A stretch of 20,000 bases of DNA from an uncultured virus (IMG/VR IMGVR_UViG_3300026154_000024) (IMGVR_UViG_3300026154_000024); one strand, 5' to 3'. Positions 1,754-10,463 are shown, numbered from the stretch's first letter. Program-made: numbers and translations. The notes: generated by a model from the letters alone, not told the origin.

Positions 1754-1838
1754 AAATAACTTTCTTTTATTTATATAAGTAACTATTTTAATTGGTATTC
1801 CATGTATATAGATAACCATAATAACACGAAACACGGCG

Positions 1839-1872
1839 CAAAGATAAATATATTATTTTGAATAATTGCAAA
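1839..1872 (-). promoter_or_regulatory. Leftward Bacteroidota-type promoter (-7 TATCTTTG)
   Basis: CAAAGATA at 1839-1846 is TATCTTTG on the minus strand; TTTG at 1872-1869 (22 bp spacer). Confidence 0.65.
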
Positions 1873-2098
1873 ACAAATCCATATTTAACACTACTTTAAC
1901 ATAATAAGGGTAACTTATTAAAAATAGTAAATACTATATATAAAGATTACTATATATAATATAAGTAACTATATATATAAAGTAAACTATATGTAATATC
2001 GCTTACCATATTTTCGTATAATGGTAAACTATATATTATCCAACACACACAAAACATACTTTTTTAAAGACCTTTGGCAACCAAATACTAAATAATTT

Positions 2099-2199
2099 GA
2101 TTTAAGCCGCTTTTTAAGCCCTACAAGGCACTTTTATACCATAAGTGGACTAATTACCCACCGACATAAAAACAACGCCTTAAAACGGCCTTAAAATCG
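2099..2199. repeat. Intergenic imperfect palindromic element, family member B
   Basis: TTTAAGCC arms versus GGCCTTAAAA, with central GTGGACTAATTACCCACC. Shares exact 14, 12 and 11 bp blocks with 12615-12699. Confidence 0.7.
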
Positions 2200-2301
2200 T
2201 TTTTTTCAAAATTTTCGAATTTTTCTTTTTTAAAAAATTTTTTTCAGAAATAAGGTGTTTGCACCACACAATACTTTGGCCGTTTTACCCCCCCCTCCCC
2301 C
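2200..2301. other. A/T-tract region plus C8-T-C5 homopolymer; candidate genome terminus or packaging (cos/pac) site
   Basis: CCCCCCCCTCCCCC at 2288-2301, next to T/A tracts at 2200-2250, inside the long non-coding gap between divergent transcription units. Confidence 0.35.
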
Positions 2302-2600
2302 TATAAAATTGCGTAAATCGTTGAAAATCAAGCCGTTATGATTTTGAAACGTTCATTTTATTACCATACGATGTATAAATTCTATCTTTTCCCGCTGTAA
2401 CACATTGAATGAGATTACAATACACAAAATACTCGAATGAAATTTTTGGCACAAAACAAAGTATATTTTTATATATATTTTGCGTTCTATATAATCATAC
2501 CGTGAAAGCAAAAGAAAAGGTCTATAAAAGAAAATATAATATAAATATAAATATAATATATATATATATAATATAAGAAAAAGAAAAAAGAAAAAGAAAA

Positions 2601-2616
2601 TGTTTCACGTGGAACA
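2601..2616. promoter_or_regulatory. parS: Chromosomal-type parS site
   Basis: TGTTTCACGTGGAACA; its reverse complement TGTTCCACGTGAAACA fits the bacterial parS consensus TGTTNCACGTGAAACA. Confidence 0.8.
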
Positions 2617-2662
2617 TATATTAAGTGTATTATTTACATTTAATGTTTCACGCTTATTTAGA

Positions 2663-2976
2663 ATTGTGTGCGTACACAAATCGTTTTGTTTTTCCTTTTG
2701 TATAATTACGCCAAACAACTTGGGAAAGCACGGCAGCGGGCTTGTAAGTAGCGTTCTCGGCAATATTTTATTTTGTCTATAATTACGCTCGTATCATATA
2801 TTATATAAAAAAGACCATGTTAAAATGTTTAAGTTAAAAAGTATTTAGAAATTACAATGTTTTTGTATTGTGTGCGTACACATGTAAAAAAGTATTTCAT
2901 TTTGGGCTTTCAAGTGTAAACAAATCTTTAATCATCATGTTAATAAACATTTATTTTGTTATTGTGTTCGCACACA
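2663..2976. promoter_or_regulatory. Three palindromic operator-like boxes, TGTGTNCGNACACA
   Basis: ATTGTGTGCGTACACA at 2663-2678 and 2867-2882, and ATTGTGTTCGCACACA at 2961-2976, all upstream of the rightward promoter. Confidence 0.65.
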
Positions 2977-3031
2977 AAGTTAAAAGTGTTTCATTTCGTT
3001 AAAAACATTTTTTTATATCAATTTTTCGACG

Positions 3032-3039
3032 TATCTTTG
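3032..3039 (+). promoter_or_regulatory. Rightward (probable early) promoter, -7 TATCTTTG
   Basis: TATCTTTGCA at the end of the AT-rich region. No clear -33 TTTG. Predicted start near 3044. Confidence 0.7.
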
Positions 3040-3043
3040 CATC

Positions 3044-3332
3044 GTGTTAAGATAGAACGGCATCGAACATAGCGCAGAAACTTAACACCGAGCGCGGAGG
3101 CAGCACCTCGTTAGGGAGGGAGCGATAAGCGATGCCGAAGCCAACGTCAGCAGGTTTACTTGTTTTTCCTGCAAAACGACTCGGGCAACAGCGAAGTGGG
3201 ATAGATAGCTGACCAAACAGAAAACATTGATTCGTTTTTTTGTTTTGTATAGTATATAAACGGACACAATGAAAGTGATAGGGCAGACCTTCATTCGTTC
3301 AGGCTGGTGAGTTTTGCGACGTTCTATCCAGC
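3044..3332 (+). ncRNA. Candidate large structured RNA / 5' leader with multiple pseudoknots
   Basis: GC-richer island with no credible ORF. Complementary pairs: 3044-51/3081-88, 3051-59/3320-28, 3058-65/3130-37, 3088-92/3180-84, 3097-3100/3106-09, 3146-51/3208-13, 3150-54/3168-72, 3215-25/3234-45, 3268-73/3290-95, 3303-07/3328-32. Confidence 0.65.
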
Positions 3333-3374
3333 ACTATTCATTCATGTTTAATTTAATTAATAGGAGATTTTACT

Positions 3375-4718
3375 ATGATTACTGTTAAGAATTTAACAAC
3401 TGGCGAGACGATTCAAGTGCGCGACGTAAAGTTGGAAAACGGCAAAATTATTGCCACATGGCAGCGCCCCGAGCCTGGTCAGCGCTTTATGGCTGCAAAT
3501 GTGGCCGTAGTTAAAACTGAAGAGACCGTACATGATGACGAGCACAATGTTGAGCGCCGCGTTTTGGCACTGGCCGACGGTTATGAGATTATTGAAAAGG
3601 CTGAGCGCCAGCCGAAGGCAAAGAAGGACGAGCCGAAGGCCGAGTCACAGCCGACAACGGACGAACAGCCCGCAGCGGTTGAGGTAGTAACTAAGAACGA
3701 GCCACAGCCACAAGCAACAAAGGCGAAGTCGGTTGAAGAATACGAGGCAGAAATCGCTGACACTTATGGGAGCATGGGTGTCGGCATCTTCAAAAGGGCT
3801 GTCGAATACGTTCAGGCAAACTACACCGCCGCCCTGGACGAAACGGCAGTACGCCGCATCGCGTCGGCTATATTTGCGGAATACGCCGAGGCACAGCCTG
3901 AGAAAATGAAGGCGGCCAAAAAGGCTGCAAAGAAGACGCGGAAGGGCGACAAGAAGAATGAAGTCTATTGTGCTAAATTCCAGCGCATCGTGGCAAAGGT
4001 CAGTCGTGGTAATAACGTGTATCTTTATGGCCCAGCGGGTAGTGGAAAATCACACACTGCCGAGCAGGTGGCCGAGGCTCTTGGCATTGATTTTTACGGC
4101 CAAACTACAATACAATTCGCGCATGATGTGCGAGGTTACGGCGATGCAGGCGGTAACTTCCAAGATACACCCTTCTTTAAGGCGTTCGCCTTCGGTGGTC
4201 TATATTTCCAAGATGAATATGACCGCTCGAACGCCGAGGCTGCTATCGTGCTAAATAGCGCACTTGCAAATGGCTGGTATGATTTTCCTATTGTTGGCCG
4301 TGTTGAGGCTCATCCTGATTTTCGCTTTATGGCAGCGGGTAATACGCTGATGACGGGCGCAGACGAGGAGTATGTGACAGGCCAGGAAATAGATGCAAGT
4401 AGCCGAGACCGCTTCGCTTATTTCTTCGAGATAGACTACAGTCACGAGGTAGAGATGCGTATTGCACACGGGAACGATAATATTGTTTCTTTCGTCGAGG
4501 ACGTGCGACAGGCTATCAAACAAACTGGTATCAAGCACGTTGTCAGTTACCGTGCTACAGCCGCAATGATAGACGAAGTGGAGAATGAAAACGACCTCGT
4601 CGCTTGTTGTGATGAATCAATATTCAAAGCTCTTGACGTTGACGCTCGTCGCGAAATATACGAACGGCTGAATGACAAATCAAGCGTCTGGGCAAAGGCA
4701 TTGAAGAAGCTCCTTTAA
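3375..4718 (+). CDS. MoxR/CbbQ/NirQ-like (AAA_5) AAA+ ATPase with long N-terminal extension
   Basis: Walker A GPAGSGKS, Walker B YFQDE, sensor-1 MAAGN, arginine-finger region DASSRDRF, and SYRA in the lid. The N-terminal domain is followed by a Pro/Glu/Gln/Lys-rich linker. Confidence 0.88.
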   Translation: MITVKNLTTGETIQVRDVKLENGKIIATWQRPEPGQRFMAANVAVVKTEETVHDDEHNVERRVLALADGYEIIEKAERQPKAKKDEPKAESQPTTDEQPAAVEVVTKNEPQPQATKAKSVEEYEAEIADTYGSMGVGIFKRAVEYVQANYTAALDETAVRRIASAIFAEYAEAQPEKMKAAKKAAKKTRKGDKKNEVYCAKFQRIVAKVSRGNNVYLYGPAGSGKSHTAEQVAEALGIDFYGQTTIQFAHDVRGYGDAGGNFQDTPFFKAFAFGGLYFQDEYDRSNAEAAIVLNSALANGWYDFPIVGRVEAHPDFRFMAAGNTLMTGADEEYVTGQEIDASSRDRFAYFFEIDYSHEVEMRIAHGNDNIVSFVEDVRQAIKQTGIKHVVSYRATAAMIDEVENENDLVACCDESIFKALDVDARREIYERLNDKSSVWAKALKKLL

Positions 4719-4780: not shown

Positions 4781-5590
4781 ATGAAAACAAAAGGGATATT
4801 CAAGCGGTACGAAACGCTGAAAGCGTTCAACGACTATCTAAACGCTGGCACGACGCAACCAGCTTTCAATAACCATTCTCACACGAATTGCGAACGATTC
4901 ACAGGCACAGAATCATACGAAGAGGCCGAGCAGAAAATGATGCGAGGGGACAGCGATTTGCAAAAGAAAATAGAAGATACTGGCGTTGCTCAGACCCGTA
5001 TCAAGGTACAGAAACAGGTGCAACGGAGACAAACCTACAGTAGTGTTGTCGGCGCAATGCCTAACGTGCCCGCCTATATAAGCGGTGCACCAAATAGCAT
5101 GGTTGCCCAGCGGCTGGTTAAGACAAAGAAAAAATTTTTGAATATCGGTTACAGCATGACGGCTGGCAAAGGAGTCGATAAAGACGAAATAATTAAAGCA
5201 TCTGCAAAGATAGTCTCAGCGATATTGAATATAGAGGCGACTGGTGTACGTGTCAATCTTTATTCTTTATTCTGTGCAAAAAGTGGCAAAAAACTCATCG
5301 GGTTGTCACTAAAGATTAAGGACGCGAGCAGGAAAATTGATACATTAAGAATGTCGTACCCGTTGGCTCATTCATCATTCCTTCGCCGTCAGTGCTTCCG
5401 CTGGGAGGAGGTTACGGAAAATATTCCTGAATGTTACGCGCGCGGATACGGATATGTGCCCAAATCAAAAGAGCAGGCAGATTTTTTCAAGCGCAACGGG
5501 CTGAAATTCGACAAGGTTCTGACGTTTGAAGATATTCAATACATGAACGTTGACGATATAATTAAGATGATGACAGGGGCTGCAAAGTAA
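4781..5590 (+). CDS. vWA-like partner of the MoxR-type ATPase (DUF7192-like, degenerate MIDAS)
   Basis: VGAMPNVPAYISGAPNSM ... HSSFLRR motifs and a beta/alpha pattern typical of phage proteins encoded directly after MoxR-type ATPases. Confidence 0.65.
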   Translation: MKTKGIFKRYETLKAFNDYLNAGTTQPAFNNHSHTNCERFTGTESYEEAEQKMMRGDSDLQKKIEDTGVAQTRIKVQKQVQRRQTYSSVVGAMPNVPAYISGAPNSMVAQRLVKTKKKFLNIGYSMTAGKGVDKDEIIKASAKIVSAILNIEATGVRVNLYSLFCAKSGKKLIGLSLKIKDASRKIDTLRMSYPLAHSSFLRRQCFRWEEVTENIPECYARGYGYVPKSKEQADFFKRNGLKFDKVLTFEDIQYMNVDDIIKMMTGAAK

Positions 5591-9616: not shown

Positions 9617-9623
9617 ATTGGGT

Positions 9624-10463
9624 ATGAAAAAGTTTGTGGTATATATCCGTGTGTCAACAAAGAAACAAGGCGCAAGCGGATTAGGTTTAGAGGCTCAACA
9701 AAAGATTTGCGGTGAGTTCATCAAGAACCACGACGGCGAAAAGGTAGCCGAATACAAAGACGTTGAAAGCGGTACTCATCGTGATAGAAAAGGTTTGGCA
9801 GATGCTGTGGCCTATTGCAAGAAAAACAATTGCGCCTTGGTTATTGCCAAACTTGACCGCTTGGCACGTGATGTTGAGTTTTGCTTTAAGATTGTGAACA
9901 CGGGAATTGAAATACATTTTGCAGACATGCCTCAAGTTAATACGCTTTTGCTTGGTGTGTTTGCATCGGTGGCACAATATGAAAGGGAACTAACAAGCGA
10001 CCGCACACGCAAGGCATTGGCCGCAAAGAAAGAACGTGGCGAAGTGACAGGCGGTGCATCGGAAAAGTGGATAGAATCATTTAACAATAAAACAAAAGAG
10101 CAAATAGATAAAGAGTATATGGAACGTGGACGTTTAAGAAACGAGCGTTATCTTGCAAGCCGTGACGTGCAAGTGTTCTTGAAAATCATCAAGAATGTTT
10201 TTGCGGCATCGTGCGTGGGTGATGATGCTACGTTGTGGGATTGGGCGGCGGTTACTACGAAAGGCGATTATCGGGCGCGTATCTTGGGTCTGATGAAAGA
10301 TTACAAGGAACTTGACGAAAGCGGCACATTGTTCGCCCGTTGGGATTTTTCGGATTTGTCATCGGAAAAGTTACGTGTACGCCTTTGCGGTAACATTCAA
10401 AATGTGAGGAAATCTTTGGAATATAACAAAAAGGTAAACGACAATGGAAACAAAGAAAGTTAA
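9624..10463 (+). CDS. Serine recombinase (resolvase/invertase catalytic domain) with unrecognised C-terminal domain
   Basis: YIRVST with catalytic Ser, QGASGLGLEAQ, DVESG, AKLDRLAR and ERELTSDRT. ATG at 9624 preferred over TTG at 9618. Confidence 0.9.
   Translation: MKKFVVYIRVSTKKQGASGLGLEAQQKICGEFIKNHDGEKVAEYKDVESGTHRDRKGLADAVAYCKKNNCALVIAKLDRLARDVEFCFKIVNTGIEIHFADMPQVNTLLLGVFASVAQYERELTSDRTRKALAAKKERGEVTGGASEKWIESFNNKTKEQIDKEYMERGRLRNERYLASRDVQVFLKIIKNVFAASCVGDDATLWDWAAVTTKGDYRARILGLMKDYKELDESGTLFARWDFSDLSSEKLRVRLCGNIQNVRKSLEYNKKVNDNGNKES

Follow-up and report, generated by a model that had tools for sequence, protein, structure and literature searches.

The nut sites of phage lambda, which combine boxA with a boxB hairpin, and the put RNAs of phage HK022 are cis-acting antitermination signals in nascent early transcripts, boxB being a short stem with a small GNRA-like loop that is bound by the N protein. 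At the other end of a leader, 5′-terminal stem-loops stabilise bacterial and phage mRNAs (e.g., the E. coli ompA leader). For Bacteroides capsule operons, one report describes leaders with ops pause sites, in which nascent-RNA pause hairpins recruit the NusG paralogs UpxY, RNA polymerase pauses at an ops-like site 10–12 nt after the hairpin, and Class-1 start codons lie at +41/+42 from the pause (PMC11685472). Long regulatory leaders occur in this genus, 13.5% of the B. thetaiotaomicron 5′ UTRs exceeding 100 nt, and the sigma-ABfr −7 consensus of Bacteroidota is TAnnTTTG (PMC7366714). In the 20,000-nt stretch of an uncultured virus analysed here (IMGVR_UViG_3300026154_000024, hereafter the window), a preliminary description had proposed that positions 3044–3332 encode one ~290-nt multi-pseudoknotted non-coding RNA, ribozyme or riboregulator, made as the first product of an early promoter ahead of an AAA-vWA gene pair. 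The region is a mosaic whose modules have been exchanged independently and are distributed differently among related phages, and we regard it as probable that 3044–3374 is a ~330-nt untranslated mosaic leader of the rightward early operon, carrying a cis-acting stem-loop, and not one folded RNA.

The first gene after this leader starts with an ATG at 3375–77 (+), read from the sequence together with an AGGAG at 3362–66, and encodes an AAA_5-type ATPase of 447 aa (3375–4718, +; Pfam AAA_5 1.7e−08, phrog_249 1.5e−50), followed by a DUF7192 protein of 269 aa (4781–5590, +; Pfam DUF7192 3e−29, phrog_1909). The AAA half of the proposed pair was thus recovered by both Pfam and PHROGs, whereas the vWA assignment of the second protein was absent from the Pfam, PDB-sequence and Atlas results: no PDB sequence matched it below E 0.45, and its nearest Atlas clusters were all DUF7192, a name for which the literature search returned nothing. 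No relative of the ATPase was found in 185,579 (bacterial) species genomes, and its matches among GenBank phages (429 records) were all below 60% identity and covered the C-terminal 56% only. Its N-terminal low-complexity linker (3716–3951) is a variable segment, as 234 nt of it are replaced by 249 other letters in a contig from the public run X3. The window carries phage genes of early type, namely those for RecT, a RecE-like exonuclease, SSB, a Lar-like protein, an HTH protein, a serine recombinase of the Resolvase family (9618–10463) and MazG-like pyrophosphatases. Neither a tRNA nor a tmRNA was found in the window; one related contig (L009) has a tRNA gene (51.3 bits) upstream, at 714–784 (−).

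The word TAnnTTTG occurs 37 times in the 20-kb window, compared with a shuffle mean of 24.9 (at least 37 in 1 of 200 shuffles). One copy, the −7 box TATCTTTG at 3032–3039 (+), lies within a promoter/operator module, P1 (2792–3051, +), which also contains two operator-like palindromes and the predicted first 8 nt of the transcript, and which is ~90% identical to three related loci. A transcript made from a Bacteroidota-type promoter probably begins with the stretch, in line with its proposed place as first early product. We infer transcription from P1, its strand, its start site and the existence of a leader RNA, the start being placed by the −7 box at 3032–39; a search for RNA runs covering 2700–4700 found none, and the matches to the downstream GC-rich sequence were in DNA contigs only. 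Three copies of a 16-bp near-palindrome of the TTGTGTGCGTACACAA type (2664–2679, 2868–2883 and 2962–2977) look like repressor operators; two of the three are followed by AAGT(A/G)TTTCATTT, and the latter two copies lie inside the P1 block that is conserved at ~90% in L005, L011 and L016, the first being upstream of it. The promoter word is present in two outward-facing copies, at 1830–1846 (−) and 3032–3048 (+), which form a 17-nt inverted repeat (88%). The leftward box (1846–1839, −) and the rightward box (3032–3039, +) are separated by a 1.2-kb AT-rich spacer (1835–3030) that is ORF-poor (GC 0.14–0.41) and has a higher density of inverted repeats than any other part of the window, with as many as 39 complementary 7-mer pairs in 289 nt; it is a candidate origin or regulatory region. 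Only 4 nt lie between the end of the leftward copy and the GTG (1834) of a 182-aa ORF, so that the message of this ORF may be leaderless.

In order to compare modules, relatives were collected through the ATPase, which at 43–70% protein identity gave 5 loci in viral and 15 in metagenome contigs, and 1834–3374 was aligned to these loci with BLAST. The P1 block (2792–3051) is 90.0%, 90.9% and 89.5% identical to L005, L011 and L016, respectively, and the likeness stops exactly at 3051, beyond which the three loci carry unrelated, ORF-free sequence; their ATPases are only 66%, 66% and 49% identical to that of the window. The following part behaves in another way, as 3030–3234 is 92.8% identical over 207 nt to L009 2080–2285, with a 1-nt indel, and this GC-rich cassette matches L009 only (ATPase 67% identical), being absent from the other 19 loci. 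Towards the gene, 3295–3326/3336 matches L008, L009, L010 and L013, and 3335–3370 is 94% identical to L012 2455–2490; L009 is the only relative with both ends, having the 3′ hairpin as well as the cassette. All share just one piece, 3030–3051, made up of the core promoter and the first 8 bases of the transcript, which behaves as a recombination linker. With regulatory blocks of 89–92% nucleotide identity beside an ATPase of 49% amino acid identity (L016), conservation is far higher in the regulatory DNA than in the gene that it would drive, a clear case of mosaic exchange at promoter linkers.

A deletion can be read from the junction segment (3235–3301, +), defined by alignment with the relatives, which contains a T-run and AGTATATAAACGGACA. 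The latter corresponds to what stands just before a second promoter, P2, in the relatives, and P2 together with ~100 nt after it is missing from the window, the hairpin being kept. P2 of L009 (TACTTTTG) lies between cassette and hairpin, and the two ends are 113 nt further apart there. Promoters of this kind, TA[CT][CT]TTTG followed by CAA, were seen at L009 2323–2450 and also in L008, L010, L013, L012, L004, L001 and L020; after P2 come a conserved GCACTGG(G/T)(A/G)ACAG with a small covarying stem, an A-rich stretch of ~60 nt and then the hairpin. In wider searches, 2900–3400 had no DNA match among GenBank phages, two cassette words had 0 and 0 matches in IMG/VR, the P2 pattern hit 47 IMG/VR loci of which 2 were true and both already known, and four 21–22-nt matches in high-GC bacterial genomes were set aside as chance because they did not extend. 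The promoter word was found at 2 loci in IMG/VR, one of them in an unrelated HicAB phage, where the same 22-nt promoter/start word (L006 1501–1522) stands before a HicA/HicB-like pair without the 5′ hairpin.

The cassette itself (3052–3234, +) is GC-rich (~0.5), T-poor (A.32, C.23, G.28, T.17) and ORF-free, and the GC-richer island noted beforehand is indeed there (GC 0.55–0.56 at 3050–3199 vs. 0.26 just upstream). The sole ORF with a start codon and at least 40 aa that lies wholly in the leader is on the minus strand (3082–3294, 70 aa), has no Pfam or PHROGs match, and is split into ORFs of 46 and 40 aa in L009; tblastx of the leader against 21 sources gave nothing significant outside the DNA-homologous stretches of L009, L010 and L012. 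The indel, the split ORF and the lack of a translated match make the cassette non-coding, as had been proposed for the whole stretch. At likenesses of at least 80% the cassette was also present in DNA contigs of three public runs (X1–X3), and a fourth run matched 3098–3138 only; these contigs differ from the window by T3063C, A3113T, TT3166–67CC and G3302T, among the differences listed. Other relatives have ORF-free, T-poor blocks at the same position (L008 1880–2280, L010 1495–1890, L013 1365–1750, L012 1900–2200 and L005 272–600; T 0.17–0.21). Taken with the cassette, such blocks have T at 0.15–0.21 and G+C at ~0.42–0.51 vs. 0.27 G+C in the neighbouring spacer. The blocks are mutually dissimilar, are enriched in AGCG and ACGG, and hold AACG 36 times in 2062 nt vs. 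12.2 expected (up to 11 in 301 nt). They may be functional RNAs or decayed fragments.

A well-supported conserved stem-loop lies at 3302–3333 (+), with a 7-bp stem position (3302–08/3327–33) and an 18-nt conserved loop (3309–3326). In a gapless alignment of 7 sequences (window, L009, L008, L010, L013, L012 and L004), 95.9% of the 49 stem cells are paired, compared with 16–47% when the 3′ partner is slid by 1–3 columns, and 6 of the 7 pairs show changes on both sides. The stem thus covaries, with a score of 0.81 vs. 0.23 in shuffles (0 of 500 as high), a control that overstates independence, as the seven sequences stand for perhaps 3–4 lineages. RNAalifold on six P2 transcripts recovers the same hairpin independently, and single folds contain the stem in all seven (−9.1 to −17.8 kcal/mol); the window copy is the weakest (5 of 7 pairs, −9.1 kcal/mol, z −0.74). 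The hairpin has an identical 17-nt loop core in L008, L009, L010 and L013 and is present in diverged form in L012 and L004, and an inner 3-bp stem shows one compensatory change and one break. L010 and L012 have G-U pairs when read on the + strand, which become C.A when the opposite strand is read and thus fit the + strand only, and the hairpin's orientation relative to the genes is constant (7/7). A covariance-model search found a single copy in each locus and in each whole record covered, as well as a 22-bit match in L001 with the look of an ordinary terminator. From the end of the stem to the ATG there are 42 nt in the window, and 52–56 nt in L009, L008, L012 and L004.

Several readings of this hairpin were tried and dropped. 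The substitution pattern of the loop looks conservative if read as codons; a leader peptide or small ORF was rejected, with 5 of the 7 sequences having no in-frame ATG, GTG or TTG upstream of the motif. An intrinsic terminator or attenuator was also rejected, given the 18-nt loop, a stem that is not directly followed by a T-run in any of the seven sequences, and the lack of any predicted + strand terminator-like site at 1800–3500. A search for a pairing partner of the loop elsewhere in each locus gave scattered G-U-rich matches at no consistent site, and the 10 matches of the loop word in IMG/VR were all in unrelated coding sequence. Among the paper titles listed on phage non-coding RNA, Bacteroides leaders and antitermination, none concerned the element, the motif catalogue compared being Rfam. 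The hairpin would be a small conserved RNA signal of a familiar kind, with no match to an Rfam family.

At the other end, GTGTTAAG (3044–51) pairs with CTTAACAC (3081–88) in an exact 8-bp hairpin with a 29-nt loop (H1, 3044–3088, +). In three otherwise unrelated leader types, the conserved 5′ arm has a complement further on, which spans 8 nt in the window (8 of 5000 shuffles) and in L009 (5 of 5000), 7 nt in L016 (113/5000) and 6 nt in L005 (412/5000) and L011 (356/5000); L006, the unrelated HicAB phage that shares the promoter word, has none. In L005 (283–293) and L011 (1938–1948), the 5′ hairpin of the P1 transcript is immediately followed by GCTCTTTGACA, which we take to resemble the boxA antitermination word. 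With the stem-loop, H1 makes two short local RNA elements that appear, from these comparisons, to be under selection.

The rival that prompted the work holds that 3044–3332 is a single large multi-pseudoknotted non-coding RNA, its 5′ and 3′ hairpin loops paired to each other, possibly acting with the ATPase; we consider this highly improbable, although the helices it lists all exist. Four of the five pairings that had been located by position are exact Watson–Crick matches (3044–51/3081–88, 3051–59/3320–28, 3058–65/3130–37 and 3171–77/3311–17), the fifth (3073–79/3312–18) being present with one necessary G-U pair, and the named short motifs are all in place (CCGAG 3088, CTCGG 3180, GTCAGC 3146, GCTGAC 3208, GCAGG 3150, CCTGC 3168, GCTGG 3303, CCAGC 3328, AATGAA 3268 and TTCATT 3290). 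Complementary 7-mers number 10 vs. a mean of 2.0 (reached in 3 of 1000 dinucleotide shuffles) and 8-mers 4 vs. 0.44 (13 of 1000), the MFE and centroid folds both contain the 3051–59/3320–28 closure, and the window-specific bases C3324 and T3327 complete its 9 bp. Moreover, Rfam 15 covariance models at gathering thresholds, which include self-cleaving ribozymes and large gut/metagenome RNAs, had 0 matches in the whole window, so such an RNA would be new. A ribozyme finds no support there, since no ribozyme matched at E ≤ 10; the four matches obtained at that level in 2300–3500 scored 10.7–15.2 bits vs. thresholds of 55–60 and did not overlap 3044–3332, in the leaders of 11 related loci the sole match was a tRNA at another place, and L009 2050–2510 gave one 12.9-bit chance match. 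The helix density had been said to go beyond that of an ordinary UTR, yet the folding energy is ordinary (MFE z −1.03 on + and −1.39 on −; −0.03 for 3044–3234 alone), and when 289-nt windows were slid along the same 20 kb, nine of the 452 with GC of at least 0.40, at four other places, reached at least 10 complementary 7-mers, so that one such region per 20 kb is unremarkable. The observation of complementary segments is accurate and weakly above chance. Its excess of 7- and 8-mers is unexplained by reading the cassette as a spacer. The comparison with L009 weighs against the long-range helices: the closure over ~260 nt loses 2 of its 9 pairs there (CGTTATAAC in L009 vs. CGTTCTATC in the window) with an unchanged 5′ arm, and in 3058–65/3130–37 T3063A with A3132G turns T-A into A.G. 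Both varying long-range helices are thus broken without compensation, in one homolog only, which is weak as a refutation, and pair 3063/3132 may be compensated in the T3063C contigs of the three runs; the remaining named helices are invariant, and hence uninformative, or fall in parts that are missing from L009. In the two cassettes (window and L009), 0 of 47 RNAalifold pairs are compensatory. The ends in L009 are 113 nt further apart with a promoter between them, and L008, L010 and L013, all of which are without the 5′ partner, keep the loop core TTTTGCG unchanged. The modules occur separately in relatives, and modular exchange of regulatory blocks explains the region better than a large RNA; of the proposed architecture, the 5′ and the 3′-most hairpins are real and conserved, and dense exact complementary words in one sequence were no evidence of a large RNA here.

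Two further readings keep part of that picture. The cassette and its equivalents (~180–450 nt) could be a swappable early non-coding RNA, made from P1 and ending before the hairpin (e.g., a decoy or sponge for an RNA-binding factor of host or phage), which we rate as unlikely. ORF-free blocks do follow P1 in the window/L009, L008, L010, L013, L012 and L005, with T at 0.15–0.21 and the AACG surplus in common, the cassette is 93% identical between phages with ATPases 67% identical and recurs in the DNA contigs of three runs, and an A-tract/T-tract hairpin with a T-run at 3215–3249 could end the transcript. The same high identity beside diverged genes can, however, equally mean recent exchange, and the composition resembles the phage's own coding strand, as expected of a gene fragment in decay. 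Terminator prediction gave none on the + strand and the T-run is missing in L009, the folding z of six leaders ranges from +1.1 to −1.9 (−0.03 in the window), and local alignments of the cassette with the blocks of eight other loci score within shuffles in 8 of 8. Its fuller form, in which the slot between early promoter and stem-loop holds interchangeable, unrelated, T-poor and CpG/AACG-rich non-coding RNAs of 180–450 nt, made first after infection as decoys or sponges against a host factor or defence, is more doubtful still; if it were true, 3052–3234 would be one allele, and the rapid replacement would reflect an arms race. Alternatively, 3044–88 and 3302–33 might have no RNA structure and be duplex-DNA sites for a repressor or for the serine recombinase, whose Resolvase-family gene is in the window. 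For H1 a DNA operator is possible, as its arms (GTGT..ACAC) resemble the half-sites of the three upstream palindromes and are only 6 nt (L005) and 4 nt (L016) apart, like an operator over a start site, but in the window and L009 the 29 nt between them are too far for a simple operator and fit RNA better. At 3302–33 the arms covary around a conserved 18-nt centre, the reverse of a dimer-binding site, with G-T pairs on the + strand only and a constant orientation in all seven. Taken over both sites, we consider the DNA-site reading very unlikely.

Under the mosaic-leader reading, we infer that the two elements act at the RNA rather than the DNA level, and their roles might be as follows. The leader would have arisen through recombination, with the conserved core promoter as its site, together with a deletion, in front of an operon of the AAA_5 ATPase, DUF7192 and onward in an uncultured phage with Bacteroidota-type promoters. 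Transcription from P1 would start near 3044, and the 5′ hairpin would form first and might protect or mark the 5′ end of the transcript, with the cassette 3052–3234 presumably carried along as an exchangeable spacer of no demonstrated structure. The stem-loop at 3302–3333 would then offer its conserved loop to a phage or host factor that sets expression of the early operon, and this putative factor may act on transcription elongation, through pausing or through antitermination of the nut/put type, or on how stable the message is or how it is translated. Should the stem-loop prove to be a control site, it would offer an entry point to the way in which early genes are switched on in uncultured Bacteroidota-type phages from digester/wastewater-type samples, for which almost nothing of such control is described, and it is small enough for direct tests.

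Compared with the nut and put signals, the likeness lies in a short conserved stem-loop in an untranslated leader, after an early promoter and before the first early gene, with one copy per operon, and in the boxA-like word after the 5′ hairpin of the same-promoter relatives L005 and L011. In contrast, the window loop has 18 nt with a possible inner 3-bp stem and is not a pentaloop, and the stretch 1800–3500 has no predicted + strand terminator to override. NusG-like (NGN, KOW), N-like and Q-like matches were absent among the 36 scanned ORFs, which for N, a class of small and diverse proteins, is weak evidence. A lambda-type nut site is not supported as far as boxA goes: the 1300 nt that lead up to the ATG in the window have no 11-mer that fits the word with 2 or fewer mismatches, and with 0 mismatches it occurs only in L005 and L011. 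Like the ompA-type stabilisers, H1 starts only a few nt from the predicted +1 and has been retained by three unrelated leaders, but its loop in the window has 29 nt. With the UpxY/ops leaders the locus shares the Bacteroidota-type promoter, a long untranslated leader, locus-specific variation and a hairpin that precedes the first start codon by some tens of nt (PMC11685472). The 42 nt from stem to ATG in the window are like the +41/+42 of the Class-1 start codons, but the distance is longer in four relatives. The gene content gives a UpxY/ops leader no support, since the first gene is AAA_5 and the second DUF7192, neither being a NusG paralog, and no NGN or KOW match was found among the 36 scanned ORFs. 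The lack of a boxA-like word and of a NusG paralog and the large loop thus place the locus outside the nut and ops classes on the features that were tested, and by analogy the nut/put signals and the Bacteroides pause-hairpin/ops leaders would be the closest known systems to this leader.
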